From sequence record SRR31156797_6845: a stretch of 64,000 bases of DNA. One strand, 5' to 3'. Position 1 is the stretch's first letter. Each line of letters starts with the position of its first letter. A program made the translations under genes and the position numbers. The notes under the pieces are model-generated. The model saw only the letters and a program-made list of their open reading frames with translations. It had not been told where the DNA came from and did not search any database. Below are positions 5,664 to 45,631 of the stretch, piece by piece.

Positions 5664-5671
5664 TCTACGAT

Positions 5672-5707: not shown

Positions 5708-5786
5708 ATAGATTCTCGCCTGACCCATCACCACTTTTTCTAACTCCCTATAACCTCTAAGGGTTATATTTCCCTTTCCGGAAACT

Positions 5787-7231: not shown

Positions 7232-7233
7232 AA

Positions 7234-7899: not shown

Positions 7900-7931
7900 G
7901 CAACCTGCCCCTCCCCATATTTTTATTAGCC

Positions 7932-9332
7932 ATGCCTTATCCTTTTTCTCCCCTTACCGCTGACTTTAAGGAAAAAATTACTGCTGCCGTTTCACCGGGA
8001 TCAGTGATTACGGAAGACTCTATTTTAGAAAAATATTCCGGTGATGCTTCTAAATTACGCTGCACTCCTGAGATGGTCATCTGTCCATATACTGTGGCCG
8101 ATGTCCAACAAGTTATACAACTTGCCAATGAATATAATTTCCCTGTAACCCCTCGTGGTGCAGGGTCCGGCTTGGCAGGCGGCTGTCTCGCTGACCATGC
8201 CGGAGTTGTCCTCTCCACCGAACGACTCACCGAGATCTCGGTTATTGATTCGATTAATGGTATTATCAAGGTCCAGGCTGGCGTCATCAGTCAGGATGTG
8301 AAAGGTGCAGCAGAGGCTGGTGGTCTTTACTACCCCCCAGATCCAGCTGGTATGGATCTCAGTACCATTGGCGGAAATGCGGCCACCGACGCTGGTGGAC
8401 CTGCCTGCGTTAAATATGGGACAACAAGAGATTATATCCTTGGTCTTGACGCGGTTTTGCCAAACGGAGAGTGCATTGCAACCGGTGTCCAAACCAGAAA
8501 AGGTGTAGTTGGTTATGACTTAACCAACCTGCTTGTAGGCAGCGAAGGGACTCTTGGCATTATCACCAGCCTTTGGCTTAGACTCATACCTAAGCCACCA
8601 GCCATCATCGGGTTAATGTGTGTCTTCAGCGACATGACTTCGGCAATGAACAGTGTCACCACTATTATGGCTGCAGGTCACCTTCCCTGTGCCATCGAAT
8701 TTCTTGATCATAAGTGCATTTCACTTGTGGGGGAATTACTTCCCTTTGATCTTCCAGGCAGTACACCTTCTATACTGATCATCGAACTCGATGGCCCTGA
8801 AAACCAAATTAAGCAGGAACTCACTACAATTGAGGAAATCCTTCAGGCGCAGGGTGCGGCTGCCATTATTCCAGCTGTAAACCAGCAGCAGAGACAAGAA
8901 ATTTGGAACGTGCGGCGTCAGGTTAGTTTGCGCATTCATGATTACGCCAATGTGTACATCCCAGAAGACGTTGCCGTCCCGATCAGTGCCATTGCTCAAC
9001 TTATTGATGCACTTCCTGTTTATGAAAAAAAATACGGTGTTGAAATTTTCGCTTTTGGTCATGCTGGAGACGGTAATATACACCTCAGCGTGACAGCCGA
9101 GAACAGCAACAGCCGCGACAATGCTGAATCTGCCGTCAAGGAGCTTCTCGCACTCAGTATCAAACTCAACGGGACTATTTCCGGTGAACACGGTATAGGA
9201 CTGGCAAAAAAAAGCTACCTGCCAATGGAGCTCTCAGCAACAAACATTGAGTTGCAGCGCAGCATCAAAACGCTTTTTGATCCCAACAACATCCTCAATC
9301 CTGGAAAAGTTTTTCCCGATCAGCCAAAATAA
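7932..9332 (+). CDS. FAD-linked oxidase, GlcD/D-2-hydroxyacid dehydrogenase family
   Basis: PRGAGSGLAGG, YPPDP, GSEGTLG, HAGDGNIH, SGEHGIG, DP..ILNPGK. Confidence 0.9.
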   Translation: MPYPFSPLTADFKEKITAAVSPGSVITEDSILEKYSGDASKLRCTPEMVICPYTVADVQQVIQLANEYNFPVTPRGAGSGLAGGCLADHAGVVLSTERLTEISVIDSINGIIKVQAGVISQDVKGAAEAGGLYYPPDPAGMDLSTIGGNAATDAGGPACVKYGTTRDYILGLDAVLPNGECIATGVQTRKGVVGYDLTNLLVGSEGTLGIITSLWLRLIPKPPAIIGLMCVFSDMTSAMNSVTTIMAAGHLPCAIEFLDHKCISLVGELLPFDLPGSTPSILIIELDGPENQIKQELTTIEEILQAQGAAAIIPAVNQQQRQEIWNVRRQVSLRIHDYANVYIPEDVAVPISAIAQLIDALPVYEKKYGVEIFAFGHAGDGNIHLSVTAENSNSRDNAESAVKELLALSIKLNGTISGEHGIGLAKKSYLPMELSATNIELQRSIKTLFDPNNILNPGKVFPDQPK

Positions 9333-14264: not shown

Positions 14265-15437
14265 ATGCAGAACTTTGTGTTTCACAATCCTACAAAAATT
14301 CTTTTCGGTAAACAGACCCTGCCGTCCATCGGCCCAGAAACCAAGGCATTCGGCACTAGGGCTATGCTTGTTTATGGTCAGCAGAGTCTTAAAGAAAACG
14401 GCACATACCAGCAGATTATGCAGTCTCTTACCGATGCTGGAGTTGTTGTTACCGAGTTTGGCAACATCCAGGCAAACCCGTTGCTTTCTCGTGTCAGAGA
14501 AGGGATACAGGTGGCAAAACAGGAAAAAGTTGAGGTACTTATCGGTGCAGGAGGAGGTTCAGTTATCGACACGGCCAAAGCCATTGCAGCCGGGGCAGTA
14601 GTCGAACATGATGTCTGGAAATTTTTCACTGGAAAAAAAGGAGTTAAGGGTACCCTTCCGGTTAATACGGTACTAACGCTGCCAGCATCAGGGTCGGAAA
14701 TGAATTCTGGAATGGTATTGACCCATGATGATAAACAACAAAAATTCGGCTTCGGGCATCGCTTTCTGTTTCCCAAAACCTCTATCCTTGACCCTGAACT
14801 TACCTATACTGTGCCGCCTGGTTACACTGCGTACGGGGCGGTGGATGCTGTTTCCCATATCCTAGAATTTTACCTTACTACCCAAGACCCTGACACACCT
14901 GTCCAAGACAAATTCATGGAAGGCCTGATTGCCAGTATCATGACAGCTTGCAAACGCTGCCTTATAGACCCAAGAAATTATGGCGGCAGAGCAAGCCTGA
15001 TGTGGTCAGCGACTCTTGCCCTTAACGGGCTAACAGCTGCGGGGCTAGGACGGGTCGGGTTTCCCATGCACCTGCTGGAACACTCTCTTAGCGGTCTTTA
15101 CAACACTGCACATGGGGCAGGATTAGCAGCACTGCTGCCTGGATGGTTGCAGTATTATAAAGAAACTGCGCCAGAACGTTTGGCTATGCTTGGCCGAGGA
15201 ATTTTTCCTGAAAGAATACCAGAGGATGCGCCGGCATCTGAAATGGCAAACCAGTTTATCGGCCTGCTGCTCCAGTGGCTGAAACAAATCAACGTTCCCA
15301 CGTCACTTCCTGAACTGGGAGTTGCAGCTGCTGACATACCAGCCATTGCCGAACACTCCAATGGGCTTGCTAAAATATGGCGCCTGCGAGAATACTCGCA
15401 GCCATTACTAGAGAGTATCCTCTTCCGCTGCTGTTAA
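14265..15437 (+). CDS. Iron-containing alcohol dehydrogenase (butanol dehydrogenase-like)
   Basis: NFVFHNPTKILFG, GGGSVIDTAK, GSEMN, HLLEHSLS, HGAGLA. Confidence 0.92.
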   Translation: MQNFVFHNPTKILFGKQTLPSIGPETKAFGTRAMLVYGQQSLKENGTYQQIMQSLTDAGVVVTEFGNIQANPLLSRVREGIQVAKQEKVEVLIGAGGGSVIDTAKAIAAGAVVEHDVWKFFTGKKGVKGTLPVNTVLTLPASGSEMNSGMVLTHDDKQQKFGFGHRFLFPKTSILDPELTYTVPPGYTAYGAVDAVSHILEFYLTTQDPDTPVQDKFMEGLIASIMTACKRCLIDPRNYGGRASLMWSATLALNGLTAAGLGRVGFPMHLLEHSLSGLYNTAHGAGLAALLPGWLQYYKETAPERLAMLGRGIFPERIPEDAPASEMANQFIGLLLQWLKQINVPTSLPELGVAAADIPAIAEHSNGLAKIWRLREYSQPLLESILFRCC

Positions 15438-15461
15438 CCCCATTAACAAGAAGAGACTTGT

Positions 15462-17909
15462 TTAAAAGCTGAAAAGTTTTTTATACTTGATATAAAAAGA
15501 CATTTCTTCAAGTTCTGGTTGCTCCAAGACATCATTTTCAATAGCCCCAAACTTGGCCCCAACAAAAAAAGTATTAAGTTGGGTCGGCTTCCAGGCAAAG
15601 AGTAACTCGACATTGATGTCATGCTCAAGTTCGTCTTCGTCATCGTACAGATATAACTCTGGATCTTTTTCGACGTAGTCGTCAATAATTGTCAGCCGAA
15701 AGAAAGATCCCGTATCAAGGTGGTACAAAGCCGTGACACCGAGGTAATTCTCTGTAAAAAGTCTCCCGTCATCAACATCAAGTTGGCGATAGATATCTTT
15801 AATACTTAGTTCAATGTGATCAGTTACACTCCAACGAATTTCCGGTTTAATCTCAATAATATCACCGAGACGGTAGTTGTCGGTATCTATTTGAGTACCA
15901 ATTTTACCTGTAACGATAAATCGAAAATTTTTGAATACAGATGTCTCAATTCGCGTCTCAAGCTGATCCTCCGTGAAGTACCTGCTATTTCCATCAATCT
16001 CCAGTGTGTTTTGTAAAAAACGTTTCGCTGTCCGATCTCGATTTCGGTACCCAAGGCGAAACCATGTCTGGTACAAGCCCCAATAGTTTAGCCAAACCTC
16101 TTTAGACTCATTGAGCAATTCACCATCTTGACTTTCTAGACGCACATAGTTGAGTGAGGGCCGGAAACGTACCTTTCCTTTGTCTTTGACTTCAGTATAA
16201 TAATTCAACCCTCCACTAAGAGAGTAGAGCCGATAGTCTACTCGAGTCATATACCCAAGATCTGCACGGAAATCTTCTCCGACATCTAAATACCTGGCGG
16301 CTAAATAGCCTTCACGCCGATTATATTTATAGCGAAGATGTACGGCATCATCCAAATACGTTTGATCGGGATTCGCTCTAAGCACTTGTTCATTTAATGG
16401 CGTCACTCCTGGTATGCCGATCGTATCTTCAGGGTCATCGCATGCGCCATCTTCGTCGCACAGCTCATTGACAATTTCTTCAGGATACTCTGTACCAGAG
16501 TAGAGCCACTGTAACCTAACTTCATTGTGCACTTTGAACTTCTTATAAAAATCAACACCGCCTACAATATTGTAATAATCAGAACCATCGGTTCGTAGTG
16601 TTGAAATCAGCCCGAGTGCACTTCCAGGACTTTGATTAAAGCGATACCGAAAGGCTCCAGAGGTACTATACTTGTCGAGGTCTACACGGTCGGATGAAAG
16701 ATTTCCTGGAACAATCAAGCTCATCTCACGATCATATACAAAAAAATTCCCAGTGGTTAATCTATTAATACTGCCAGAGGCATTGACACCCCCAATTGGG
16801 TCCTCAATATTTCTTGTGTATACGAGATCGAACGGTGTTCCAAAATTTTCGATACTTTTCAAAAAAAAGGGACGCTTTTCAACATCCAGTGGGGTGAACG
16901 GATCATTGATACTAAAGTCCGTCAGGTCGGCTTCGACTTCAAGAAAATTTGGATTGATGGTTGCCCAAAAGCCAAAAGACGGTGTCGGTTTATAGCCAAG
17001 ATCTAAACTCACTTCCGACTTATACTTCTGCTCCCAGCTTTCATCTTCTACCGGATCTCGTTCATGCTCGTTTAACAGTGTTAATCCCGGAACGAGATAT
17101 ATTTTTTTTGGAGGTAACTCTGGTCGTTCATAAACAGTCCTTACTGTGATCGCACTGAGATGGTGCCGAACCTCACGGGGATAATGACGTTTGAACAGTA
17201 GGATTCTCTTTTTGACGTTCTTATCAACAGATATTTCAAGGGTATCAAATGGAATCTTCATTTCAACTTGATACCCAGTATCCGTTATTTTTGTTGCTGC
17301 TGTCCAGTCTGCATCCCAGTCACGGGCACGAGTATCATCCACTCGGTTCCTCACCCAATCACCTTGAACCCCCTTGGCATTGACGAAAAATTCATACGTT
17401 TCGAGTAATTGCCCAGAAGGGTCTATCGCTACACCGACATAATCATCTAGTTCAATGCCGTCTCTATCACGTAACGGTGCTTGTATTTCAGCAGGCGTTG
17501 GGTCAAAAGCTTCAAAAGCGAAAACAAGGCTGTCTTCATGGCGACCTACACGAACGAGAGTCTTTACAGGAGCAGCTTCAAGCCTTGCGGGGTAGGTCTC
17601 GAAAACGATTTCATACTCTGCCGCAGACTTCCAACCAACATCATCAATATTTCCATCAATTGTCAATTCACCGCTAATTTCTGGAGTATGCAGTTCCTTG
17701 ACTTGGAGTAATTCACGAAGGTCCTCAATTTGATCTTGAGGCTCATTGGAATCGTCCTCTGACGAAGTGCTTTCTGCAAATGAAACAACTGGGAATATGC
17801 AACAAAGAGCTATCCAAAACGATACAAGATATGGTCTTAAAGATTTTCTTTGTTGCACAAAGATGCCTTGTTCATTTGCGCAATAATATGAATAGAAATA
17901 CTTAATCAA
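15462..17909 (-). CDS. CBM9-like/DUF5916-type outer-membrane protein
   Basis: Signal-like N-terminus, IDGNIDD..W, YEFFVN..GVQ.D, INPNF.EVEAD, EKRPFF, YTRNI; terminal Phe; start uncertain. Confidence 0.75.
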   Translation of the reverse strand: MIKYFYSYYCANEQGIFVQQRKSLRPYLVSFWIALCCIFPVVSFAESTSSEDDSNEPQDQIEDLRELLQVKELHTPEISGELTIDGNIDDVGWKSAAEYEIVFETYPARLEAAPVKTLVRVGRHEDSLVFAFEAFDPTPAEIQAPLRDRDGIELDDYVGVAIDPSGQLLETYEFFVNAKGVQGDWVRNRVDDTRARDWDADWTAATKITDTGYQVEMKIPFDTLEISVDKNVKKRILLFKRHYPREVRHHLSAITVRTVYERPELPPKKIYLVPGLTLLNEHERDPVEDESWEQKYKSEVSLDLGYKPTPSFGFWATINPNFLEVEADLTDFSINDPFTPLDVEKRPFFLKSIENFGTPFDLVYTRNIEDPIGGVNASGSINRLTTGNFFVYDREMSLIVPGNLSSDRVDLDKYSTSGAFRYRFNQSPGSALGLISTLRTDGSDYYNIVGGVDFYKKFKVHNEVRLQWLYSGTEYPEEIVNELCDEDGACDDPEDTIGIPGVTPLNEQVLRANPDQTYLDDAVHLRYKYNRREGYLAARYLDVGEDFRADLGYMTRVDYRLYSLSGGLNYYTEVKDKGKVRFRPSLNYVRLESQDGELLNESKEVWLNYWGLYQTWFRLGYRNRDRTAKRFLQNTLEIDGNSRYFTEDQLETRIETSVFKNFRFIVTGKIGTQIDTDNYRLGDIIEIKPEIRWSVTDHIELSIKDIYRQLDVDDGRLFTENYLGVTALYHLDTGSFFRLTIIDDYVEKDPELYLYDDEDELEHDINVELLFAWKPTQLNTFFVGAKFGAIENDVLEQPELEEMSFYIKYKKLFSF

Positions 17910-17920
17910 GGCTTATACAG

Positions 17921-18373
17921 TTAGTCTACCGAATAACCACGGCTCTTCATACAATCATTATAACTCTTGTTATATGCAGAGGGGTCACCAGCCGGTGGTG
18001 CAGCCTGGGCCTCCTTTTTTGCCTGACGTCGATTACGAGCACCGCCGGCTACGGCGCCCGTAGCGGCGCCAATCTCAGCAGCGTCATCATACCTTTCATC
18101 ATCACCAACGACTTCAACTGTCCCGCCAACAATTGCTCCTTTTGCAGCTCCCCGAGCAGCTCCTCTTAGGCCAGCCCCCCGTTCAGGCTGCGAAGTTGTT
18201 GCAGGTGCGGATGGATCATAGCCGCTTGAAGATTTAGCGTGTTCCTGACAGGCAGCTTGATCACTCGCCTGTTGAGCCGGATCAGGTGCTCCTTCTGTTT
18301 GGGCAAAACTAAGAGATGATCCAGCAACAAAAAATAATGATATAATGGCACATTGTAATGTTTTCACGCTCAT
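17921..18373 (-). CDS. Exported glycine-zipper protein (YMGG-like)
   Basis: Signal peptide, DQAAC, GAARGAAKGAIVG...GAATGAVAGG, C-terminal CMKSRGYSV; GGAG SD before ATG 18373. Confidence 0.75.
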   Translation of the reverse strand: MSVKTLQCAIISLFFVAGSSLSFAQTEGAPDPAQQASDQAACQEHAKSSSGYDPSAPATTSQPERGAGLRGAARGAAKGAIVGGTVEVVGDDERYDDAAEIGAATGAVAGGARNRRQAKKEAQAAPPAGDPSAYNKSYNDCMKSRGYSVD

Positions 18374-18571
18374 GAACAATATCTCCGTAAAGATGAATAA
18401 AAATAGATATCTACTAGACAAACTACACAATACAACAACCTATTGGACTTCACCGAAGAATGGATTGTAAACAATGGAGTTTACAAATCGCACTTTGTTA
18501 TACTGTCGTGCAGTGAAGGTTGCACCTGCACTTAGGGAATAAAAAATAAACAACGAACATCATGCTCTATT

Positions 18572-18745
18572 ATGAACCAAAGTCAGGCTTTTCTCCATTG
18601 CCTAATACCTGAGAAGCTTGAAATCAACAGGTTATTACCCATACGCGTCAATTTGCCGATTCCTCCACCAAAAGGGCCGGTCCATCTCTGGTCACTTATT
18701 TTTTTACGGCCAGCAGTTGTGATTGGCGCCGAGGTGAGGTGAGGT
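18572..18745 (-). pseudogene. Degenerate 3' fragment of an outer-membrane barrel gene (family often auto-annotated 'neuromedin U')
   Basis: Minus strand reads LTSAPITTA..SDQRWTGPFGGGIGKLTRMG, then after frameshifts PVDFKL and KPDFG; no start or upstream part. Confidence 0.6.
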
Positions 18746-18750
18746 GAGGT
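18731..18750. repeat. Pentanucleotide tandem repeat (GAGGT)x4
   Basis: gaggtgaggtgaggtgaggt. Confidence 0.9.
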
Positions 18751-18772
18751 AAGAATACTATCAACAAAGTGT

Positions 18773-19525
18773 TCATAAGCGAAAAGCAAGTCCAAACATC
18801 GGGCCATGAGTAATAGTATCATAGACAAATCTATCTGGAGTACCTTCGGTACCAGTGCTATAGTCAACCGATAGGGCACGATATTCAAATATCAGTGTAA
18901 GGTAGTCTGTAACATCCCATGCGACTCCGCCTTGCAGGTTCCAGGTAAAATCAGAACCTACTCCGAAACCTCCTATATCGCCCTTAATGATGAGGGACCA
19001 ATTCTCAGCAATTTGCGGCATCCAGCGAATGCCGACAACAGGATCTACCCAGGCCTCATCACTTTCAGCCTGCCTAGTACCGTTTATATTGACATCAACA
19101 TCCATGTCCCACCAGCGGACACCACCATAAAAAGCAAGAGGGTCTTCAATGGTCTTGATCCTGTACATGGCATAACCTTCAAGAATTTTCTGAAAAATAT
19201 CTGTTTCAGTAGTGGTTAAGCCACCAGCTCCTGTCGCTGTACTGCTGAGGTCCATAAAATTATATGCCAGGCTGAACCCATAGCCACTTACATGTTGCGC
19301 TTCAGCATGGATCATTCCTCCTAGCTGCAGCGAATCGAAGATGTCATCAGAAGTAATATCTATATCAGCACCCTCAATGGCACCAACAGAGGAATCACCG
19401 GTAATGTATGGCAGCAACAGGTAAGGGGCTATCACGAAATCCCATTTATCGGCAGCATGGCATACTTTTGGAGAAAGGAACAATGAGAGAAGACATAAAT
19501 AGATAACATGATGGGTTTTTATCAC
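18773..19525 (-). CDS. Outer-membrane beta-barrel protein
   Basis: Signal peptide, W.F.IAPYL, WVDPVVGIR, GDIGGFGVGSDFTW, C-terminal GPMFGLAFRL; GTG 19525 after GGAGG. Confidence 0.8.
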   Translation of the reverse strand: MIKTHHVIYLCLLSLFLSPKVCHAADKWDFVIAPYLLLPYITGDSSVGAIEGADIDITSDDIFDSLQLGGMIHAEAQHVSGYGFSLAYNFMDLSSTATGAGGLTTTETDIFQKILEGYAMYRIKTIEDPLAFYGGVRWWDMDVDVNINGTRQAESDEAWVDPVVGIRWMPQIAENWSLIIKGDIGGFGVGSDFTWNLQGGVAWDVTDYLTLIFEYRALSVDYSTGTEGTPDRFVYDTITHGPMFGLAFRL

Positions 19526-19653
19526 GATCACCTCCGCATAGTTTGGAAAAAGGTAGAAGGAACAATGAGCTGATTGTAACTGTTTATTGCAATGATGCAG
19601 GGACTGCCTAGTGTCGTAACCCCATAATAGTAACTCATCCCATGTATGCACAA

Positions 19654-19693
19654 AGTTTATCCCAAGAACACGTATTCGTTCTTGGGATAAGCT
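19654..19693 (-). terminator. Hairpin/terminator after SYLF gene
   Basis: TTATCCCAAGAAC...GTTCTTGGGATAA inverted repeat. Confidence 0.7.
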
Positions 19694-19701
19694 ATTACCT
19701 A

Positions 19702-20268
19702 TTATTCAATGTCGAGTTTCTTAAAGCTTGAGCCTTCCCATGAGAGGTCAGCCATCAAACCTTTATCTCCGAAAATAAACGAAACAATGTCCTTTTTAAG
19801 ATTGGTAGTGTCAATGTCACCGCCTGCGCCAACTTTGGCTACGGCAACAGAAGCATCCACGCCGAATTCCCATTCGCGCTTACCACTGGTGAAACTTGCC
19901 AACACTTCGTCAGTATTCAATACAAGAATCATAGAATGCTTTGCCACTCCGAGAAGGGCGCCGGCCTTAAGAGCTCGTGTACTGTAATAGAGAGGCTCTG
20001 TACTCCCATCTGTCAGCACGCATTTACCTCCTTCATAACCAATACCAATACCCATTTTTTTGATGTCAGGACAGACCACAACACCTTTCGCGCCGGCAAA
20101 AACGGCATCTGCTCCTTTTGTCTCTGCTTTAAATTTTGCTGCTACGGCCTTGGACTCAGCCAAAAGTTCAGCGGCTTCGTCTGAGGTAAAAGCTGCCATT
20201 GCAAAACTAGACATAAGTAGAACAGTGATACTTGAGATGATCGATGAATAAATCATTTTTTGTAACAT
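19702..20268 (-). CDS. Exported lipid-binding SYLF/Ysc84-domain protein
   Basis: Signal peptide, AKGVVVCP..K.G.GIG.E.G, GVDASVA, KGLMA.LS.EGS. Confidence 0.85.
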   Translation of the reverse strand: MLQKMIYSSIISSITVLLMSSFAMAAFTSDEAAELLAESKAVAAKFKAETKGADAVFAGAKGVVVCPDIKKMGIGIGYEGGKCVLTDGSTEPLYYSTRALKAGALLGVAKHSMILVLNTDEVLASFTSGKREWEFGVDASVAVAKVGAGGDIDTTNLKKDIVSFIFGDKGLMADLSWEGSSFKKLDIE

Positions 20269-20307
20269 GGTTTTCTTCTCCTCTTCTGGTTTTTGGAACG
20301 GCTTAAT

Positions 20308-20331
20308 GATAATCGTCTAAAGACGATTATC
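20308..20331. promoter_or_regulatory. Perfect 11-bp inverted repeat, putative operator
   Basis: GATAATCGTCT-AA-AGACGATTATC, 40 nt upstream of SYLF start. Confidence 0.5.
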
Positions 20332-20378
20332 TCCTGGTTTACTACTTATAATATTGATTTGTTTGAGGTGATTCTTCC

Positions 20379-20990
20379 CTAAATACCGCCTTTTGCCATC
20401 CATCCAAGCATAAGTACTCCCACCGCAGCGATCCAACTACCGACTACCCTCACTGCCACGTGTGTCCAGGCAGGTCGAAGTGAAATAACGAAGCTCGAGA
20501 TTATAGCAACCAAGACAAAGAGCGTTGCAGCGGTACCAACTAAGCCTAATATCCCTGAATCACCTTTCATGGCTATGCCATTATAAAAACCGTGTATACC
20601 ACCTACTGTTACAACTAATACAGTAGTAATATTGTCTGGAAGCTTGAGATCGGCGGCAATGCAAGCACCCAGGAGAAAAAACGAGAGCATTGGCAGATGG
20701 AAAAGCGATGAACTTGTAACCAACAGCCCAACCAATCCACCTATCAACCAGGCTAAAGGAAAAAAGAATAACGTCCGCCTTCCTTGAATTACACCTCTAA
20801 GTCCAGCATACAAACATACTGCTACTGCTGGTATAAAATCTTCAGGTGTTAATAGGAGGTGGCCTATACCATCATAGACGGGTCCCATACCAGTTGTTAC
20901 CAGATGAGCTGCTGCATCTTGAGGGTGCAGTATTACTAGAAATATTGTTGTGTGGGTAAGGAGCAGTATCCCTGATTTCAGCCTATTCAT
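20379..20990 (-). CDS. HupE/UreJ family membrane protein
   Basis: AAAHLVTTG, DGIGH, IHGFYNG, RVVGSWIAA; ATGA overlap with upstream gene. Confidence 0.82.
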   Translation of the reverse strand: MNRLKSGILLLTHTTIFLVILHPQDAAAHLVTTGMGPVYDGIGHLLLTPEDFIPAVAVCLYAGLRGVIQGRRTLFFFPLAWLIGGLVGLLVTSSSLFHLPMLSFFLLGACIAADLKLPDNITTVLVVTVGGIHGFYNGIAMKGDSGILGLVGTAATLFVLVAIISSFVISLRPAWTHVAVRVVGSWIAAVGVLMLGWMAKGGI

Positions 20991-21598
20991 GCCAGCGCCT
21001 GCCACAAGAAAAAAATTCCCATGGCGGTGATAAAAGCTCCGGAAGTACGCAATACCAGCTGGCCTGATGGCCAGCGATGAATCAGGCCGATAGCAATGCC
21101 AACACCATGTAAACATCCAGTAGCAATGACAAACCCTATACTGTAAAGGAGGCCGCTTTGCCCTGCAGGCAATTCAGTACCGTGCGCGTGACCATGAAAA
21201 ATAGAGAAACAACCAACAATAATTATGGCTACTGTCAGTTTCGAGTGCACCTCACCTAAAACCATTAATCCAAGAACGATAGCTGATGCAGCAATACCAA
21301 CTTCGATTCCTGGAACGAGAATACCAAGTAACCCCATCATGGCACCCAGTGACATCATCAAGGGAAAGGTTATCGGGAGAACCCAGACAGCAGGGTTTCC
21401 AAGTTGTGCTCCCCAGAGTCCGACTGCAACCATAGCTATGACATGATCAAGTCCGGACCAGGGATGTTCGAGGCCTGTGAGGAGACTGACACCCTGACCC
21501 TGTTGAACATGAGCGAGAACAGGAGCAGCGTAGACAAGACAGCCTGTAAAGAAAAAAAGACATATCAGCGAATTGTAACGGGTTCGATGACCGATCAT
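20987..21598 (-). CDS. HupE/UreJ family Ni/Co-permease-like protein
   Basis: LAH, HPWSGLDHVIAMVAVGLW, FHGHAHGTELP, ATGCLH; ATGA overlap. Confidence 0.9.
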   Translation of the reverse strand: MIGHRTRYNSLICLFFFTGCLVYAAPVLAHVQQGQGVSLLTGLEHPWSGLDHVIAMVAVGLWGAQLGNPAVWVLPITFPLMMSLGAMMGLLGILVPGIEVGIAASAIVLGLMVLGEVHSKLTVAIIIVGCFSIFHGHAHGTELPAGQSGLLYSIGFVIATGCLHGVGIAIGLIHRWPSGQLVLRTSGAFITAMGIFFLWQALA

Positions 21599-22605
21599 TT
21601 TAAAAGGCCTCCAATAAAAATGGCTGTCCGTTGAAATGTCCAGTATGCCCCCAGACTTCCTACTGTGTACCCTGGCAGAACCATAACCCATTGCGGCCAA
21701 TGAATCTGGAGGATCCTAAAAGAACTCGCCAGGGCCAAGGCAATAAAGATAAAGGTCAGCTGCCCTAACTCAACACCGACATTAAAGCTCAGTAAAGCCC
21801 AGGGGAGTTCAGCTTTAGGCATTCCTGTTGTGGTAAGACCGCTGGCGAATCCAAACCCATGAAGTAACCCAAATAAAAATGCAACAACCCAAGGGTATTT
21901 GATGGTGAGACTTGTACCTCCACCCCGTGAACGGAAAATTTCCGGTCCCAGGAAAAGTATACTAAGGGCTATAGCTGCATTGAGTGGTGGAAGAGGTATG
22001 TTAGCCAAGCCCAAAGTGGCAAGAGCCAGGGTGATACTGTGGGCAAAAGTAAAGGAAGTGATAGTCTTGATAAGTGTTGCTCTGTTCTGCACGATAAAGA
22101 GCAAACCTAATACAAAGAGAAGGTGATCAACACCGAGAAAAATATGGTAAACCCCGAGTAAGATATATTCTCCTGCCGTAGTATGCCAAGATCGATCACC
22201 TCGAAGTTCTGTAAACGGTTTTGTAGGCCGAACCACAGAGGTCATTGTAGTGGAATCCAGACGATTTAATCGAACATACACATCCGTTATTGTCGACTCA
22301 AGACCTGGAAAACGAATTATTGCTCCCTCAATGCTTTTTGATTCAACTTCTACCACCCAACGAAAAATGGTTGAATCAACCATATGTCGCTCAGTAGGCT
22401 GGATAATATTCTTCCAGTTTTCGGGCATTTGTAAACGAGCAGGGTGAGGTTTGCCATAATAGATAGGCGCCTTCCAGGTTACATCGTATCTATCAGGGTT
22501 CAGCTGGTTAATTTCCAGTGTCCCCGGTTGGGATTCATGAGCAAGAGCTGAGGTAATGCTAGCCAACAGAAGAAGAAACGGGAATAAACAAGTCAAACGA
22601 ATCAC
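21595..22605 (-). CDS. HupE/UreJ_2 family protein with periplasmic N-domain
   Basis: LAHESQP, HIFLGVDHLLF, TSFTFAHSITL, FGLLHGFGFA, FNVGVELGQL. Confidence 0.9.
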   Translation of the reverse strand: MIRLTCLFPFLLLLASITSALAHESQPGTLEINQLNPDRYDVTWKAPIYYGKPHPARLQMPENWKNIIQPTERHMVDSTIFRWVVEVESKSIEGAIIRFPGLESTITDVYVRLNRLDSTTMTSVVRPTKPFTELRGDRSWHTTAGEYILLGVYHIFLGVDHLLFVLGLLFIVQNRATLIKTITSFTFAHSITLALATLGLANIPLPPLNAAIALSILFLGPEIFRSRGGGTSLTIKYPWVVAFLFGLLHGFGFASGLTTTGMPKAELPWALLSFNVGVELGQLTFIFIALALASSFRILQIHWPQWVMVLPGYTVGSLGAYWTFQRTAIFIGGLLK

Positions 22606-23504
22606 AACAGATCCTCCTGAGCCGCTTGAACTTCTGGCACTACCTGAGCATTTTTGCCCCCACCCTTCTGATGTTCAATGACAATGGTGTATTTGTCACG
22701 GAGTCCTTTATAAATGTTTTCTTTGAGTTCTTTTTTGGTAGCAGCGCTCCATTCCCATTCGACTGTATCCTTGATTTCATCTAAACGTGGTAGCCTGGCG
22801 GCAACGTGGTCGGTAACAAAAATCAGGTGAAGGCCGTAACCGGATTGAACAGGGCCACTCCACTGCCCTGGGACCATCTTGGCCAGGTCGAGGCTGAATG
22901 GTTTTCCAAATAGCTTTGTAATTTCACTGACAGGAGTTAGGCCAAATGCTTTTGGTTGCATTAACCTGTCACCTAAAGAATCTGGATCAGTATTATTATT
23001 CTCCGACAATATGGACAGTATTTGAACTGCCTCCTCATCTGCCGTGATACCTCGTTGAGTTACATCAATAAAGACATGGCGAAAGGCTACCTGCGGTTCA
23101 ATGTTAAATTTATCAGGATTGCTTTCTAGAAACTGTTGGAGCTGTTCATCTGTTGGGATTACAGTCCCAGCTAGATCATCACTCATCAACTCCAGTTTTT
23201 GTCTCAAACGGTTGCGAATAACCGGATCATTCTTGTCTAGCCCAAGGCCCAAGGCTTCACGATATAAAATCTCTTCACGTAAATAGCTGTCTACGAGTCC
23301 TGCAAGTTCCTCCTCTGACGGGGTCCGTTGCCGGGTTCTGGCATAACTCGCCTTCAAAAACTCTATCTGCCCCTCTGTAATGACGATCCGACTCGATTCT
23401 TTATCGATCGGATCGTCAAACACTTCGAATAGCAGAAAAAGCGCTGCCCCTATCAATAGAAAGTGAACCAGGGGTTCCCTAAGTAATGATCTCACAGTTA
23501 TCAA
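22602..23504 (-). CDS. Membrane-anchored parvulin/PpiC-type (rotamase-like) protein
   Basis: LREPLVHFLLIG, EEILYREAL.LGLD..D.VIR.RL.QK, WSGPVQSGYGLHL. Confidence 0.88.
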   Translation of the reverse strand: MITVRSLLREPLVHFLLIGAALFLLFEVFDDPIDKESSRIVITEGQIEFLKASYARTRQRTPSEEELAGLVDSYLREEILYREALGLGLDKNDPVIRNRLRQKLELMSDDLAGTVIPTDEQLQQFLESNPDKFNIEPQVAFRHVFIDVTQRGITADEEAVQILSILSENNNTDPDSLGDRLMQPKAFGLTPVSEITKLFGKPFSLDLAKMVPGQWSGPVQSGYGLHLIFVTDHVAARLPRLDEIKDTVEWEWSAATKKELKENIYKGLRDKYTIVIEHQKGGGKNAQVVPEVQAAQEDLL

Positions 23505-23509
23505 TAGGA

Positions 23510-25453
23510 TTAAGGCATATACCAGATAGGCGATGAATAGGCCCTTTCCTGATGAATCAGTTTCGCTTCTTTGGGAACTTCTGCACCGAGGCGTACTTTA
23601 TCATACAGAACCCAACGTGGTGTAGGGATTTCCAGAATCCGGGTATAATAGAAAGCCTTTACATTTGGGTCAAAATCAGGATCAGTCCAAATAGCACTCA
23701 GTTCTGCTGCTCCAATAGTATTTGTCCAGGTTGCAGCTTCAAGATCAACGGTGTTACCAACCGGCGTCTTACAGCGACCGTCTTTTCCAATAGATCTCCC
23801 GTCTGATACCGCTACATCATAAATACGCTCATGGGTTTTGCCATCTTTGTCAAGCCAGCCTTTGATAATTTGGACACGGTCTAGATTCGCACCAACAGGG
23901 TCACGCAATGCCACTACCATAAAGTTTGGCCCTTTATCTGCAGTCGCCTTGGTCAAATCTCCGCCCATTGGAACGCCCTTTTCGTACCCTATAAAAGCTG
24001 GAGTACGGCTGCGCAAATCATTATCTTCATAATCCCAACCACCAAAAAAACGAACTATCATACGGGGGCCGGTAGTTGCATATGTTTCCTTACGCTGCAT
24101 GGCGTCAAAAATAGCCTCACGAGTATTCTCTGTTGCCCAGACAGCTTGATAACCAGATGCAGAAAGCTCATAGCCTTCAATAGCTCCAAGTTTTGACTTA
24201 ACAAAGGGGTGCATTACTCGAGTTGGAGAAGGTTCTACGCTGGTAGATTTACCAAAAAAGTTATCCTCCTCTGCAGTTGCAAGACCAGTGTGACTGTCAG
24301 TTGCCCCAATCATGCCGAATTTGTAAGGATTTGTGCCAAATTGCTGTTCAAGGACCAGACCATTTTTAAGGGCTTCACGTGCATATTCCCGCTGTAGCAT
24401 ATCAGGTTTCTTCAGTTCTGTGATATCCAGGTTGCCCTTGTCCAAGGTTTCGTAATCGGCAAATTCGTCATTGGGTGAAAGAGATGGGTGTGTCTCCCCG
24501 TCGCCTTTTATTTGAGTTACTTCATATAGTGGTTCCCACTTTGCACGTTGTTTTACATAATTTTCATCAACCTTTCCTCCTGCATAGGTATCTACCATAG
24601 GAAACATCCAACCGTTGGAGAGGTTACCGTTATGAGAAATTGCAAATGCTTGACCACCAGTTTTTGTCTTGTACGTCTCTAACCATTTGTACAAATCCAA
24701 TGGGTCCTGCGTTCCAAGGGGAGGTTGAGTTGTGAGCGGTATTACCATCCGTGCCCGGATACCGTCGTCACGCAAAATAACGTTGCGATGCAGATTGAAG
24801 CCTTTAGGAACTGACGTCCACTCAAAACCGATCAAGGCGGTAAAATGACCAGGGTCGTTAAATTGATCGGCAAGCTTTGTCGTACTATCCCAAATATTAT
24901 TATAGATTGAAGATCCTGGAGAATATTGAGCAACAAGTTCCTCAGGGATAGTCATCTGGGAAAAATTGGTGATGAGGTCAAAAGCAGCTTTTCCAGCAGC
25001 CTCACCACCTTTTGCAAAACCTTCAGCCCATTCTTTACCTTTTGGAATTGCCATAATGTTAGCTGCCCCACGTTGGATATCAGTGGCAATTCCCATCATG
25101 TCAGAATGGTCTGTTATTACCAGCCAGTCCAGCGGCCGACTTAGCTTGACAGGCAGGCCAGTCGACGATTTAATTTCTTCACCACGGGCAAGACGGTAGG
25201 CATCTTCATGGCCGAGAGTATTGCCAAACAGCCCGGCATCAAGGGATAACCCCGTATGCAGGTGAGTATCCCCCCAGTAGACACGGCTAGGGAAGCTGCG
25301 TTGAGCGTAGGGTGAATAGGTCTTACCAGGGTATAAGCTCTCAATGACTTCAAGATTAGGACTTCCCATGTCCATTGCCAGTGCTGCTGTTGACATCGCA
25401 GGGATAGTTAAAAAAAGAATGCACTTCTTGATCAGTTTACGATTAATGCTCAT
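23510..25453 (-). CDS. DUF3604 exported PHP-like metalloprotein
   Basis: Signal peptide; [52 protein letters not shown]-terminal [11 protein letters not shown]. Confidence 0.9.
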
Positions 25454-25833
25454 TTCTCATCCTCCGTACTAATTTTGTTGGGGGAAAGTTGGCACAAAGT
25501 TGAACTCACAAAATATTTTCCTTATGTATAAGGCAGTTAGCTGTAAATCAGCCAATCTTCCAATGAAAACAAGAGTAAAAAATAATGGAGCAAGACAATA
25601 AAATGTATATTTTCATGTACTGTTGTGCACTCGGAAGAAAGCACAATGAAACTTCTCCCTCAGTTAAGATTAATTAGCAGCCATTAAGCTGCTAAAAAAC
25701 AATGAACATCCCGGTTTGAATATCAAGACGCCACTTGGTTACTGTTGGAAATAGTTTGAAAAATTTTCTAAATCTAGAATGCATATATTCGCCATCCAGA
25801 AAACTATTATAAAATATACTCAGTTACGGCAGC

Positions 25834-25887
25834 TTGACAAATATTATAAATGAGCATTAAATGAGTACACTAAATGCTCATTTAATG
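25834..25887 (+). promoter_or_regulatory. Putative sigma70 promoter overlapped by nested inverted repeats
   Basis: TTGACA 25834, TTAAAT 17 nt later; TAAATGAGCATT/AATGCTCATTTA and CATTAAATGAG/CTCATTTAATG inverted pairs. Confidence 0.6.
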
Positions 25888-25901
25888 GGAGTCGATATAT
25901 C

Positions 25902-27239
25902 ATGGAAAGCAACAATCAAAGAATGGAAGCCACATTTAACCCTACCGACTTCAACAGTTCAGGTAATACACTTGAACTACTCTCAAAATTGATCATCCAT
26001 AGCCCTTACGGGTATATAGTTACAGACTGCACAAAAACAGACAGTCCCGTTATCTTCGTAAACCAGGCTTTTCAAGCATTAACCGGTTACACATCCGAAG
26101 AAATTATTGGTCATAGTTGTAGACTTTTATTGGGGCATGATACCGAACAGAGTTCTCTTGAGGCAATGCGCCGTGCTTGTCAAAGCGGACACGAATACAC
26201 TACTGTAGTCCGCAACTACAAGAAGGATGGATCGCTTTTTTATAACGAACTATCTATGGTGCCAATCAATGATCAGGACGGGAATACAAAAAATCGTTCT
26301 TGGATGCTCAAAGATATCACTGACCAAGTTGAAATAATTGAAAATTTGGAAACTGATATAACCCTCAAAGAGAACAGGTTAAATGCATATTTAACTAACT
26401 CAAAAGAGGCGATTTGGCGTATTGATTTCAACCCTCCCCTATCGCTTGAAGAGCCTGAATCCGTACAGGTTCGGCAACTTCTCAACAATAGTATCTTTAC
26501 TGAAGCAAACGATGTAGCTGCCAAAATATATGGGTTGGAAAAGGGAACCGATATAATTGGAATGCGACTCAATAAATTCATGAAGACTTCTGATCCTGAA
26601 AACCAGAAACAGATGACCAAACTTGTGCAAAGTAACTTCCGCTTGGACAACTTGATCTCAAAAGAAATATCGGTTGATGGTACCTCTAAAATGTTATGGA
26701 ATAATATCACCCCCTCGATCCTCCATGGTAAGGTGATATCCATTTGGGGAACAAGTCTCGAAGTATCGGATCTTTTTAAAACTCAAAAAGAACTTAAGAA
26801 ATCCCAAAAAAGACTCAAAAAGAAAGAAAAAAAACTACGAAAAAAAAATGTTGCGCTTAAGGAACTCATAGTTCAGGTCGATTTCGAAAAAAATCATTTT
26901 AAAGATCGCATCATCGCTAACATTCAACATATCCTATTGCCATCTTTAGATAGGATTAAGTTAAACCGAGGAGGCCTGGAACACATAGAGCAATTAAGAA
27001 AAGACCTTGAAGACCTCACTTCATCCTTCGGTTATAAAATAGCACATGAAAAAACGAAATTATCTCCCCGCGAAGTTGAAATCTGCAATTTAGTTAAAAG
27101 TGGTTTATCGAATAAAGAAATTTCCAGCTTGCTAAATATTGCCCTTTACACAGTCCAAAAGCATCGGCGTGTAGCTAGAAAAAAAATGGGGATCACTAAC
27201 AAAAGTATTAATTTACAAACCTATCTTAATTCACTCTAA
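25902..27239 (+). CDS. LOV-like PAS-PAS-coiled coil-LuxR HTH transcriptional regulator
   Basis: IGHSCRLL, RNYKKDG..FYNEL PAS; C-terminal LSPREVEICNLVKSGLSNKEIS..LNI...TV.KHR...RKKMG. Confidence 0.88.
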   Translation: MESNNQRMEATFNPTDFNSSGNTLELLSKLIIHSPYGYIVTDCTKTDSPVIFVNQAFQALTGYTSEEIIGHSCRLLLGHDTEQSSLEAMRRACQSGHEYTTVVRNYKKDGSLFYNELSMVPINDQDGNTKNRSWMLKDITDQVEIIENLETDITLKENRLNAYLTNSKEAIWRIDFNPPLSLEEPESVQVRQLLNNSIFTEANDVAAKIYGLEKGTDIIGMRLNKFMKTSDPENQKQMTKLVQSNFRLDNLISKEISVDGTSKMLWNNITPSILHGKVISIWGTSLEVSDLFKTQKELKKSQKRLKKKEKKLRKKNVALKELIVQVDFEKNHFKDRIIANIQHILLPSLDRIKLNRGGLEHIEQLRKDLEDLTSSFGYKIAHEKTKLSPREVEICNLVKSGLSNKEISSLLNIALYTVQKHRRVARKKMGITNKSINLQTYLNSL

Positions 27240-27613
27240 AACAAACAAAATATTTCAGGGACCGTGATGCTAAAAATCTGTCAATCAAAAAGTAACCAGC
27301 CAGTATGGCTTATTTCATAATATCTAGATAATACATAACAAAAATTTACGAAAACTGTATTGCTACTTCCATATATTTAACTGGTTTAAGGCTAAACGGA
27401 AACTGCTGGTATACTTACAAAGTGATGTGAAAAATGAATTAGAAGGAGCACCATGCCGTATCGGTATGAGCATCAACTTCTAAAACACTGTTGTATCAAT
27501 TATTAAAACAGGAAGGTGTTCCCCTGACAGGGGAACGAGGGTCTTGGCTGAATATTTAGCATTGCTTACACAAAGAGCATATGTGTCCAGCTTTTTTTTC
27601 TCTAACTGACAAA

Positions 27614-27646
27614 CAAAAAAACCCAGTCAAATCAATGACCAGGTTT
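27614..27646 (-). terminator. Terminator after ssb
   Basis: Minus strand ACCTGGTCA...TGACTGGGT followed by T-run. Confidence 0.65.
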
Positions 27647-27676
27647 TATTATTTTCAATTTTTCACTTGCTCTAGA

Positions 27677-28099
27677 CTAAAACGGTACATCATCTGCCAT
27701 TGGCGGCGGTTCCTGTGGAAAATCACCAAAACTGCCTCCACCATCTCCGCCGCCAGTCATTCCCGCACCAGCACCTCGAGGGGTCAGCATTTTCATTTCC
27801 CTTGCCACAATCTCAGTGGTATATCTGTCATTACCATTCTGATCCTGCCATTTCCTAGTCTGCAGCTTTCCTTCTATGTAGACCCTGGACCCTTTTGACA
27901 GATACTCACCGCAAATCTCTGCAAGACGTTGCCAGGCAACTATCCGATGCCATTCTGTCTGCTCCTGCATTTGACCATCTTTACCTTTCCATCTCTCGGT
28001 TGTTGCCACGTTAAAAGAGGCAACCGGTGCGCCACTCTGAGTATATCGTATTTCAGGGTCAGCGCCAAGATTACCGATAAGAATTGCTTTATTAATCAT
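27677..28099 (-). CDS. ssb: Single-stranded DNA-binding protein
   Basis: [32 protein letters not shown], acidic DDVPF tail. Confidence 0.97.
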
Positions 28100-28170
28100 T
28101 ATTCACCTGTTGTTTAAAATTCAGTTTACAATTTCTCTTATACTTTTGATTTTTAAAAATTACAAAATAA

Positions 28171-29298
28171 TCATTGGCCGGAAACACTGACCGATCGGTC
28201 CAGCATCTTTTCCAACCCTCCATGCTCTTCTGGAGTATAACCAAATACCTCCTGCCATATTTCGCTGCTTTCCATGCAAAAGTATACACAGGTCCGTTCT
28301 GCAGTATATTTTTTTAATTCGTCAAGAATGAATTGATACATGGCGACCCTTTGTGGTCGGAAGTAACGGTACTTATTATCAAGGCCATTGACAAATTCTT
28401 CGTAAAAAAAGGTCGAATGAGGAAAACGTTCTGTGGCAATATTCTTTAGTGACGGCAGGTAGCGTAATGCCCCCATGCTTATCCAAGCGATTTTGTCAGC
28501 AGGTACGGCCTGAAACAACCGCCTTATGGTCTCCCGGTACCCTTGCTGCCAGTTATCGTGATAAATGATGGGGTCAAAATGAAAGGCAAGATGATATCCC
28601 CACTCGGCTGCTTCGAATGCAGCCTTGAGGCGTTCGTCGAGAGTTGCAGTACGTAACTCTTCTTTGGCCATTATAATTGGGCTATTAAGTGACCAGGCAA
28701 CTACAGTGCGACCGTTGTGTGGTACGTGTTCAAGCTGCTTAATAATATTGCACTTGGTCTTTAATTCAAGCACAGCATTACCTTTGTTGCTCATATAGCT
28801 GATTAACCGAGAACTTAACCCTGTCAACGAGTCAATGGCAAGGCTATCTGTAAATTCACCGGTCCCTATCCGGTAAAACTGTTCAGGATGGTTGAGCAGC
28901 ACGTTGTCCAATTCGGCAAACATGTCCTCAACATTTACACAGAAACTGAGCCATGGATTGTTCAGATAGGCCTGTAAAATACAGTACACACAATCCATAG
29001 GACAGTTCATTCCTATATTAAGGACCTGGTATCCGCAGCAGGTATATTCCCTCGTCCCCGGACAAGGTTTAAAAAACACCCCCCGATTTTTGCATAACAG
29101 CAAGTGGTGCTTCCCGAAGGTGAGGTTTTCAGGAAAAGTTCCTGGTATATCAGGCAGGGCTCCATCTTTTAGGATGGTAACCGGGAGGTTAGCCCTCTCT
29201 ATTATCTGTTGGGCATATGGGTTGTCCAAGCACTCTTCGGTAACATGAATATGAGTTATATACTGTGCGGGATCACCATAGGAAGAAACTTTATTCAC
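28171..29298 (-). CDS. Spore photoproduct lyase-like radical SAM protein
   Basis: CPMDCVYC radical SAM motif, LQAY, HNGRT..AWSLN, FHFDPII, YFCME. Confidence 0.85.
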   Translation of the reverse strand: MNKVSSYGDPAQYITHIHVTEECLDNPYAQQIIERANLPVTILKDGALPDIPGTFPENLTFGKHHLLLCKNRGVFFKPCPGTREYTCCGYQVLNIGMNCPMDCVYCILQAYLNNPWLSFCVNVEDMFAELDNVLLNHPEQFYRIGTGEFTDSLAIDSLTGLSSRLISYMSNKGNAVLELKTKCNIIKQLEHVPHNGRTVVAWSLNSPIIMAKEELRTATLDERLKAAFEAAEWGYHLAFHFDPIIYHDNWQQGYRETIRRLFQAVPADKIAWISMGALRYLPSLKNIATERFPHSTFFYEEFVNGLDNKYRYFRPQRVAMYQFILDELKKYTAERTCVYFCMESSEIWQEVFGYTPEEHGGLEKMLDRSVSVSGQ

Positions 29299-45630: not shown

Positions 45631-45631
45631 G

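Follow-up and report, generated by a model that had tools for sequence, protein, structure and literature searches.

Anglerases are fusions of an Ang-1 domain to a HupE/UreJ-2 permease and were named in 2025 (PMC12537917, Nat Commun 2025; PDB 9gce). According to the main text of that paper, Ang-1 binds Cu2+ (Kd of about 74 nM) and Ni2+ (Kd of about 220 nM) through its N-terminal His, the domain is proposed to "fish" metal ions for the permease, and HupE/UreJ proteins are stated to be nickel permeases (PMC12537917). The words "DUF3604," "isomerase," and "sulfatase" do not occur in its main text. Here, we describe a locus in which the gene for a predicted anglerase stands together with genes for a parvulin-type chaperone and for a member of DUF3604, an existing Pfam family. 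The locus lies at positions 15462 to 27239 of a 64,000-nucleotide stretch of DNA from sequence record SRR31156797_6845, and the whole stretch is called the window below. Its parts are of known kinds, namely, a PHP fold, parvulin chaperones, anglerases, and a LOV-like LuxR regulator. No description of the DUF3604-parvulin-anglerase module was found in the literature searched.

The 336-aa protein of the window has the architecture of the anglerases, with a signal peptide, a predicted first His, an Ig-like beta-sandwich, and a PF13795 membrane domain. Its genetic setting differs: where both occur near DUF3604, a parvulin gene always precedes the window-type HupE_UreJ_2 gene, and the HupE_UreJ_2 gene is usually next to DUF3604. 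In hydrogenase and urease operons, a HupE/UreJ permease gene is found beside that of a nickel enzyme, and the enzyme is loaded in the cytoplasm. The locus described here is similar in that a metal permease gene shares the operon of a metalloenzyme that presumably needs the metal, but DUF3604, with its Sec-type signal peptide, would be loaded in the periplasm. PHP enzymes have an HxH...DxH metal-ligand pattern and a multinuclear site. The DUF3604 protein is predicted to have the same fold as PHP phosphoesterases (3e38, 2anu, 7rty, RNase AM, and YcdX), and 3e38 likewise has a beta-sandwich as a second domain behind its PHP barrel. However, DUF3604 is about 650 aa long, with large insertions, is Sec exported, and has no detectable sequence similarity to these proteins, and the two structures closest to it are themselves uncharacterised.

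The DUF3604 operon and its products

The core of the locus (20379-25453) is one translationally coupled operon of five genes, running from DUF3604 to the last HupE-like gene. The parvulin gene starts 5 nt past the DUF3604 stop codon, the parvulin and HupE_UreJ_2 open reading frames (ORFs) share 4 nt, and inspection of the sequence revealed ATGA start/stop overlaps at the HupE_UreJ_2/HupE and HupE/HupE-like junctions. This arrangement is more than chance, because the core is conserved in other genomes (see below). The four genes distal to it are separated by intergenic gaps of about 110 to 340 nt. As the initial annotation had described, the ORF listing and Pfam and NCBIfam scans gave nine co-oriented minus-strand genes (15462-25453) between an alcohol dehydrogenase (ADH) gene and ssb, with a divergent regulator at 25902-27239. 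It had also held that every minus-strand product carries a signal peptide or transmembrane segments; when the translations were read by eye, a signal-peptide-like or membrane-anchor segment was found to open all nine of them. The features are as follows.

14265-15437, plus strand: iron-type alcohol dehydrogenase (Fe-ADH) gene, left flank of the block
15462-17909, minus strand: CBM9_1-like protein with a DUF5916-like C-terminal region, 815 aa, probable outer-membrane protein, loosely linked (CBM9_1, 33.1 bits; cut-off, 23.4)
17921-18430, minus strand: Gly-zipper-like exported protein, 169 aa, loosely linked (weak NCBIfam matches)
18773-19651, minus strand: probable small outer-membrane beta-barrel, 292 aa, start probably internal, loosely linked (weak OMP_b-brl match)
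19702-20268, minus strand: SYLF/Ysc84-domain exported protein, 188 aa, loosely linked (Ysc84, 47.9 bits)
20379-20990, minus strand: divergent HupE/UreJ-like permease, about 203 aa (PF04955, 33.7 bits for the ORF 20379-21116; cut-off, 23)
20987-21598, minus strand: HupE/UreJ permease, about 203 aa from an ATG that overlaps the upstream stop codon (PF04955, 171.6 bits for the ORF 20987-21700; same cut-off)
21595-22605, minus strand: HupE_UreJ_2 permease, predicted anglerase type, 336 aa (PF13795, 138.3 bits; cut-off, 24.5)
22602-23504, minus strand: predicted membrane-anchored parvulin-type peptidyl-prolyl isomerase/chaperone, Rotamase_2, 300 aa (PF13145, 40.7 bits; cut-off, 27)
23510-25453, minus strand: DUF3604 protein, 647 aa (PF12228, 818.4 bits, E of 4e-246; cut-off, 20.4)
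25454-25901, no strand: divergent control region containing an 11-mer in three exact copies, one of them over the DUF3604 start codon
25902-27239, plus strand: regulator with a LOV-like PAS domain, a middle domain, and a LuxR/GerE helix-turn-helix (HTH), 445 aa (Pfam PAS_9, GerE)
27677-28099, minus strand: ssb, short (140 aa), right flank of the block

A 101-aa ORF at 18583-18888 is probably no gene, as it overlaps the barrel gene and had no family hit.

The DUF3604 match covers profile positions 3-591 of the 591 in PF12228. An AlphaFold2 model of the protein was built from an alignment (A1) of 73 DUF3604 relatives from related loci, with a mean pLDDT of 88.4 and a pTM of 0.88. In the model, a signal peptide is followed by a PHP-fold catalytic domain with large insertions and by a C-terminal Ig/FN3-like beta-sandwich. 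Foldseek matched the model to the PHP protein 3e38 (E of 6.5e-6, probability of 1.00). With VIA-align, the best structural matches were all of the PHP family, and the first three stood well clear of unrelated rows: 3e38 (BVU_3505; Z of 15.9, 233 residues aligned, rmsd of 3.4), 2anu (TM0559; Z of 15.8), 7rty (PsfC; Z of 12.5), 5zb8 (EndoQ; Z of 11.8), 3o0f (the putative PHP phosphoesterase BAD_1165; Z of 10.6), and 9etk (RNase AM; Z of 8.7). YcdX gave a Z of 6.7, and residues 465-647 matched Ig/FN3 domains with a Z of 6-7. H64, H66, D72, H116, E211, H274, H322, D386, and H388 were invariant among the 73 sequences of A1; by pattern, they resemble the HxH...DxH ligands of PHP enzymes and would be compatible with a multinuclear metal site. 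Judging from the model, DUF3604 is a Sec-exported protein with the fold of the PHP metal-dependent phosphoesterases, and it is in this form, with a predicted metal-hydrolase fold, that the exported metalloenzyme of the initial annotation is borne out.

The family is large, with 1,623 representatives at E of ≤1e-30 and 10,155 at E of ≤0.001 in a search of 1.84 billion entries. It is also unusually conserved: the best 80 of 593 confirmed relatives had identities of 54-84% across phyla. In Chlamydia trachomatis, CT_425 is annotated as a DUF3604 domain-containing protein in a transposon-mutant table. One paper naming DUF3604 states that neither metal binding nor activity had been reported for the family.

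The product of the second gene is, by its sequence, a membrane-anchored, periplasm-facing parvulin like PEB4, SurA, and PrsA, with a predicted isomerase role. Its family profile (A3) matched the solved structures of Cbf2/PEB4 (3rfw; 1.7e-9, positions 62-272), SurA (2e-7), HP0175 (4e-7), and PrsA (2e-5), and a hydrophobic N-terminal membrane anchor, read by eye, would turn the protein toward the periplasm. It differs from these chaperones in that it is of a separate family, which gene order links to a metal permease.

For HupE_UreJ_2, the model (pLDDT of 89.4) placed a beta-sandwich at about residues 27-135 and the helices of the membrane domain at residues 140-335. The N-terminal domain resembled the copper-bound Ang-1 domain (9gce; Z of 8.2, rmsd of 2.9, 102 residues), and it matched the zinc-binding proteins PA4063 (7ahw; Z of 9.4) and ZrgA (8ezw; Z of 9.2) slightly better. 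Cleavage was predicted by eye after Ala-Leu-Ala and before His-Glu-Ser, which makes His the first mature residue. When this column was counted by eye in an alignment of the family (A2), it held His in 21 of 28 sequences and Asp in the remaining 7, a further difference from the described anglerases. His is likewise the predicted first mature residue (read by eye) of the two downstream HupE paralogues. Homologues of the divergent HupE-like gene follow HupE in seven loci of other genomes (L008, L030, L032, L048, L079, L100, and L102). On the strength of its model, HupE_UreJ_2 is an anglerase, i.e., an Ang-1-type beta-sandwich fused to a HupE/UreJ-2 permease, for which metal capture is predicted. 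The folding and metal-handling partners proposed in the initial annotation accordingly have names, a periplasmic parvulin-type chaperone and metal-handling permeases. Its statement that no component has an assigned pathway holds only in part, as the fusion had been described in 2025 as a metal-capturing anglerase (PMC12537917, main text).

A complex prediction for the parvulin and HupE_UreJ_2 scored 0.17 against a mark of 0.34; the verdict was "no answer," and it was counted neither way. Two proteins in A2 (L039:3076-4146 and L050:15078-16178) have an Ang-1-like N-terminal domain followed by a different, non-HupE C-terminal part and may represent a second way of anchoring a metal-capturing domain.

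The DUF3604 neighbourhood in other genomes

The neighbourhood of DUF3604 was surveyed in the loci of the 80 best relatives. The window proteins were searched against these loci by tblastn, and neighbouring ORFs were clustered and then scanned with Pfam, with additional counts from hidden Markov models (HMMs). The tblastn search found the parvulin in 38 of the 80 loci, HupE_UreJ_2 in 36, and both in 35. In all 35 pairs, the order was parvulin and then HupE_UreJ_2, and 34 of the pairs lay on the DUF3604 strand. The position relative to DUF3604 varied: 18 loci had the pair downstream, 13 had it upstream, and in 4 it stood between tandem copies of DUF3604. Of the 80 loci, 45 had 3 kb or more on each side, and one or both partner genes were present in 23 of these. 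The pair-bearing loci came from 12 named phyla, and on a FastTree tree of DUF3604, the pair was scattered, with 16 label changes compared to a shuffled mean of 16.3. Because the pair is spread over the tree, the link is not that of one inherited clade.

The association was also found in a sample of 201 genomes from the order of Desulfosediminicola (Desulfobulbales), where DUF3604 was present in 11 genomes and HupE_UreJ_2 in 22. When the HupE_UreJ_2 rows were split by score, the class at about 143-155 bits was found in 10 of the 11 genomes with DUF3604 and in a single one of the remaining 190. Eight of the 11 had a HupE_UreJ_2 gene of this class no more than about 4 kb from DUF3604, in most cases some 1.3-1.6 kb downstream of it. 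The complete trio of DUF3604, parvulin, and HupE_UreJ_2 is also present, according to PGAP annotation, on plasmids of Sinorhizobium meliloti, Rhizobium leguminosarum bv. trifolii WSM1325, and Ruegeria THAF33; in WSM1325, its locus tags are RLEG_RS33255-33265. The initial annotation had named a survey of this kind as a check, and recurrence of the trio in 35 of 80 loci and on annotated rhizobial and Ruegeria plasmids speaks in favor of its proposal. DUF3604 was found in 80 of 72,556 plasmid records, of which 27 were typed as conjugative and 11 as mobilizable. The matching plasmids were mostly rhizobial megaplasmids and plasmids of the Roseobacter group.

Other genes recur beside DUF3604. A type-I sulfatase (PF00884) was found there in 17 (HMM) to 20 (clustering) of the 80 loci, often together with an outer-membrane channel. 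In this the loci resemble type-I sulfatase clusters, from which the window differs, since sulfatase, FGE, and anSME genes were not seen in the window scans. The neighbouring sulfatases received no NCBIfam subfamily assignment, all matches being far under the cut-offs; they also scored against the model of the phosphoric/sulfuric ester hydrolase PehA, again far under the cut-off. Among outer-membrane families, Phenol_MetA_deg was found near DUF3604 in seven loci and in L074, FadL in three loci, and an unnamed barrel-like family in nine loci (HMM). Members of this last family (L017, L026, L035, L043, L055, L061, L072, and others) are about 300 aa long, with a signal peptide, an alternating beta-barrel-like pattern, and no Pfam match. 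DUF1254/DUF1214 occurred in three to five loci and alpha-carbonic anhydrase, a periplasmic zinc enzyme, in four (L011, L043, L071, and L078), and an FGE-sulfatase, an arylsulfotransferase, and ZnuA occurred in one locus each. The neighbour cluster "unk389" was rejected as an artefact of ORF calling: it had no Pfam match, and its representative runs antisense over the parvulin and HupE_UreJ_2 genes of L042.

Two layouts illustrate the larger form of the module. In L008, the regulator is followed by two DUF3604 genes, a sulfatase, Phenol_MetA_deg, the parvulin, HupE_UreJ_2, HupE, and the HupE-like gene. In L029, the regulator is followed by a sulfatase, Phenol_MetA_deg, two DUF3604 genes, the parvulin, and HupE_UreJ_2, with a CBM9-like gene of 869 aa further on. 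The description of the window block as self-contained was too strong, as elsewhere DUF3604 usually stands with a type-I sulfatase and other barrels (Phenol_MetA_deg and FadL) that were not seen in the window.

The four distal envelope genes of the window are rare near DUF3604. The SYLF protein (109 bits against the NCBIfam BPSL1445 family, under the cut-off of 200) had a counterpart in 1 of the 80 loci, L061. For the small barrel, the OMP_b-brl match (E of 0.001) was under the cut-off; by language-model features (Atlas), it resembled unnamed clusters (score, 0.99) whose putative barrels have about 250 aa, and related clusters carry DUF481, OMP_b-brl, or YfaZ on a minority of members. Depending on the method, it was found near DUF3604 in 3 to 5 of the 80 loci, with tblastn relatives in L008, L022, L035, and L042 (coverage above 75%) and in L026 (coverage of 40%). 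The Gly-zipper protein, matched weakly by the NCBIfam TagQ and YiaD glycine-zipper models, far under their cut-offs, had relatives in two loci (L037 and L051). In the 815-aa protein, DUF5916 was not reported by Pfam at E of ≤0.01; its language-model features (Atlas; 0.98) placed 30 of 30 hits in CBM9_1/DUF5916 clusters, and a single relative, with 32% identity, lay downstream of the module in L029. With counts of this order (barrel, 3 to 5; Gly-zipper, 2; CBM9/DUF5916, 1; SYLF, 1), these four genes could not be upheld as parts of the system in the sense of the initial annotation.

It is possible, with the odds leaning against it, that the nine genes are not one system at all, and that the unit runs from DUF3604 to the last HupE while the SYLF, small-barrel, Gly-zipper, and CBM9/DUF5916 genes are unrelated envelope genes in a variable region. 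The spacing of the distal genes, compared to overlaps or 5 nt in the core, their low recurrence (1 to 5 of 80 loci), and the different cargo that the same site carries in the closest sampled genome (see below) are all in line with this explanation. However, all four genes are co-oriented with the core and all encode envelope proteins, and each has at least one relative beside DUF3604 in an unrelated lineage. Moreover, some barrel, of varying family, recurs beside DUF3604, a pattern that resembles the exchange of one part for a functionally similar one. The four distal genes probably have an auxiliary role and can be exchanged.

The variable site and the divergent regulator

The initial annotation had proposed that the block is accessory, and this is supported by its distribution: 11 of the 201 sampled genomes had DUF3604, the 30 with a TsaD identity of at least 64% were not among them, and the closest sampled genome has other cargo at the site. 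For TsaD, encoded in the left flank, the identity to the 201 sampled genomes did not exceed 76%; therefore, the window's own genome is outside the sample. Among seven genomes taken from those closest by TsaD, five keep MoaA-TsaD-KsgA together with ADH (four of them also DUF2062); in the other two, MoaA, TsaD, DUF2062, and KsgA are present and ADH was not seen. The block and ssb were not seen in these seven relatives up to about 14 kb downstream (one stretch ended at 4.1 kb).

In G051, the closest sampled genome, the flanks, from ADH to a pair of spore-photoproduct-lyase (SPL) and GT2 genes, enclose a different cargo of about 15 kb (L099, G051:C3:89500-108500). It comprises a hybrid kinase, a sigma-54 regulator, a TRAP transporter, LUD-domain proteins, and a CO-dehydrogenase-like gene; ssb was not seen there. 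The interval from ADH to SPL-GT2 (window positions 15437-28171) is a variable site. At 27677-29298 of the window, ssb adjoins the radical-SAM gene of the SPL family; the SPL-GT2 pair is kept in G051, and SPL homologues were found in all five relatives searched. By G+C content, only the regulator stood apart, with 0.35-0.41 compared to 0.43-0.48 for the block, the rest of which is like its flanks. As for marks of a mobile element, no convincing flanking repeats were found.

The regulator aligned with YtvA (2mwg; 5.7e-25) and with EL222 (8a5r; 1.2e-24) in the PDB, the LOV and HTH parts both being covered, and it scored 112 bits against the NCBIfam YtvA family model, under the cut-off of 250. It resembles YtvA and EL222 in having an N-terminal LOV-like PAS domain, and EL222 also in its C-terminal LuxR HTH; at the LOV adduct position, it has Cys. 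It differs from them in its length of about 445 aa, an extra middle domain, and a coiled-coil-like stretch. Orthologues with 42-45% identity stand divergent to DUF3604 operons in three loci (L008:8241-9584, L029:2316-3632, and L051:2541-3833), and all three have Trp in place of this Cys, which makes a classical blue-light switch unlikely for the family as a whole.

Between the regulator and DUF3604, the divergent region is 448 nt long, and the only three exact copies of the 11-mer in the 64-kb window lie at 25445-25883. Palindromes of the form RAGCAT-N5-ATGCTY adjoin the orthologous regulators in L008, L029, and L051. The window 11-mer had no exact match in 98 loci, and only the looser palindrome is common. 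The divergent LOV-like PAS-LuxR regulator probably acts on the repeated 11-mer to set expression. A promoter-like site at 25840-25813 is a weak lead, as terminator and promoter scan counts were close to those of shuffles. No Rfam match, riboswitches included, was obtained at E of ≤1 in 15000-28500.

Elsewhere in the window, a 522-aa protein (61466-63034) carries a Schlafen/AlbA_2 domain at its C-terminal end. At 42398-48925, a response-regulator-PAS-GGDEF gene and a hybrid histidine kinase gene with an Hpt domain adjoin a gene for a UvrD-type helicase of 1097 aa with a long N-terminal extension.

A model for the operon and its alternatives

We propose a model in which DUF3604 is a Sec-exported ester hydrolase of PHP fold, served by a parvulin and by a metal supply of the anglerase/HupE kind. 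The enzyme would fold in the periplasm with the help of the parvulin and would carry a multinuclear transition-metal site, for which the anglerase/HupE cassette would secure or balance the metal (Ni, Cu, Zn, or Co). Its substrate may be an anionic ester (phosphate or sulfate) of a small amphiphilic or hydrophobic compound, which would cross the outer membrane through a barrel protein, and in many other genomes DUF3604 would work beside a type-I sulfatase. That the barrels import the substrate and that the products of the adjacent genes mature the enzyme, both suggested in the initial annotation, are conjectural parts of this model. We give the model as a whole a probability of roughly 55%, and within it the block is best explained as a horizontally spread envelope module.

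Several observations weigh against this model. The 80-locus sample is biased to close relatives of the window DUF3604. Even there, the parvulin was not seen in 42 of the 80 loci and neither partner in 22 of the 45 well-flanked ones; therefore, the enzyme does not always need the cassette nearby. Conversely, in two genomes of the same order, a four-gene cassette of parvulin, HupE_UreJ_2, HupE, and HupE-like genes stands with no adjacent DUF3604 (G106:C35, L100, positions 4745-8249; G116:C1, L102, positions 4740-7836), its HupE_UreJ_2 being 66-69% identical to that of the window. DUF3604 was not found anywhere in G106, whose genome is possibly incomplete. The cassette thus forms a separate unit, partners "dedicated" to DUF3604 is too strong a term for a cassette of parvulin and three HupE-type genes that also stands by itself, and the parvulin may be a partner of the transporter no less than of DUF3604. 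As for the ester, scans of 16 block proteins and 43 further window proteins detected no sulfatase, so that this hypothesis draws its support from other genomes. HupE/UreJ and, as proposed in the main text of PMC12537917, anglerases import metal into the cytoplasm, which would be of no obvious help to a Sec-exported enzyme. Among the matches listed in the Ang-1 neighbour tables of that paper, there are three for Rotamase_2, three for Sulfatase, and none for DUF3604 (PMC12537917). Finally, no link between DUF3604 and PHP proteins was found by sequence comparison: a Pfam scan at E of ≤0.01 gave DUF3604 alone, the A1 profile had no hits in the PDB, phmmer against solved structures gave chance hits (E of ≥0.23), and hhalign against the PHP domain of DnaE gave a probability of 0.1. 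The putative metal ligands were assigned by pattern only.

Some of these observations would fit an operon that serves mainly transition-metal acquisition or homeostasis. The anglerase and the two HupE proteins would then import Ni, Cu, Zn, or Co, the parvulin would be part of that machine, and DUF3604 would be ancillary, releasing metal from an organic complex or buffering periplasmic metal, and would not feed on an organic ester. Three HupE-type permeases in a row, all with His as the predicted first mature residue, point this way, as do the likeness of the anglerase N-terminal domain to zinc-binding ZrgA and PA4063 and the stand-alone cassettes in G106 and G116, with a multicopper oxidase gene about 2 kb past the cassette end in G116. 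So do the ZnuA (one locus) and alpha-carbonic anhydrase (four loci) genes near DUF3604 and a phytochelatin synthase gene near the trio in S. meliloti. Binding of Cu and Ni by Ang-1 domains, which are proposed to supply the permease, is also in line with this reading (PMC12537917, main text). We nevertheless consider this explanation rather unlikely. The permease is not nearby in about half of the DUF3604 loci, and the frequent sulfatase and hydrophobic-substrate barrel neighbours fit catabolism better. Neither a metal riboswitch (Rfam) nor a metal-sensing regulator was seen, the regulator being of the PAS-LuxR type, and DUF3604 itself is a 650-aa protein with a predicted hydrolase fold and invariant polar residues. 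In G116, a TetR gene also lies, with the multicopper oxidase gene, within about 2 kb past the cassette end.

That DUF3604 is instead a periplasmic or extracellular nuclease or phosphodiesterase scavenging phosphate, with the neighbouring "sulfatases" being phosphodiesterases of the alkaline-phosphatase superfamily, is very unlikely: EndoQ, RNase AM, and polymerase PHP domains are among its structural neighbours and the sulfatases score, far under the cut-off, against the PehA model, but the top matches, 3e38 and 2anu, are uncharacterised PHP proteins and not nucleases, no pho-type context was seen, the FadL and Phenol_MetA_deg barrels are tied to hydrophobic compounds, and the FGE-sulfatase and arylsulfotransferase neighbours point to sulfate esters.

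The preferred model, a periplasmic ester hydrolase with its own chaperone and metal supply, also has a bolder form, which we regard as unlikely and put forward as speculation. DUF3604 might be the physiological client of the anglerase/HupE-UreJ-2 proteins, in which case a parvulin and a metal-fishing permease would form a dedicated membrane machine that loads this periplasmic enzyme of PHP fold with Ni, Cu, or Co. The enzyme might then represent a new class of ester hydrolase, e.g., one more mechanistic class among the sulfatases or a new type of alkaline phosphatase, widespread in marine-sediment bacteria and rhizobia, with the cassette exchanged between phyla.

The module gives a candidate client for the anglerases, and R. 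leguminosarum, S. meliloti strains, and Ruegeria are among the tractable bacteria that carry the trio. For DUF3604, a large uncharacterised family, the predicted PHP fold taken together with the parvulin and the predicted metal-capturing permeases leads to a concrete hypothesis that can be tested genetically.

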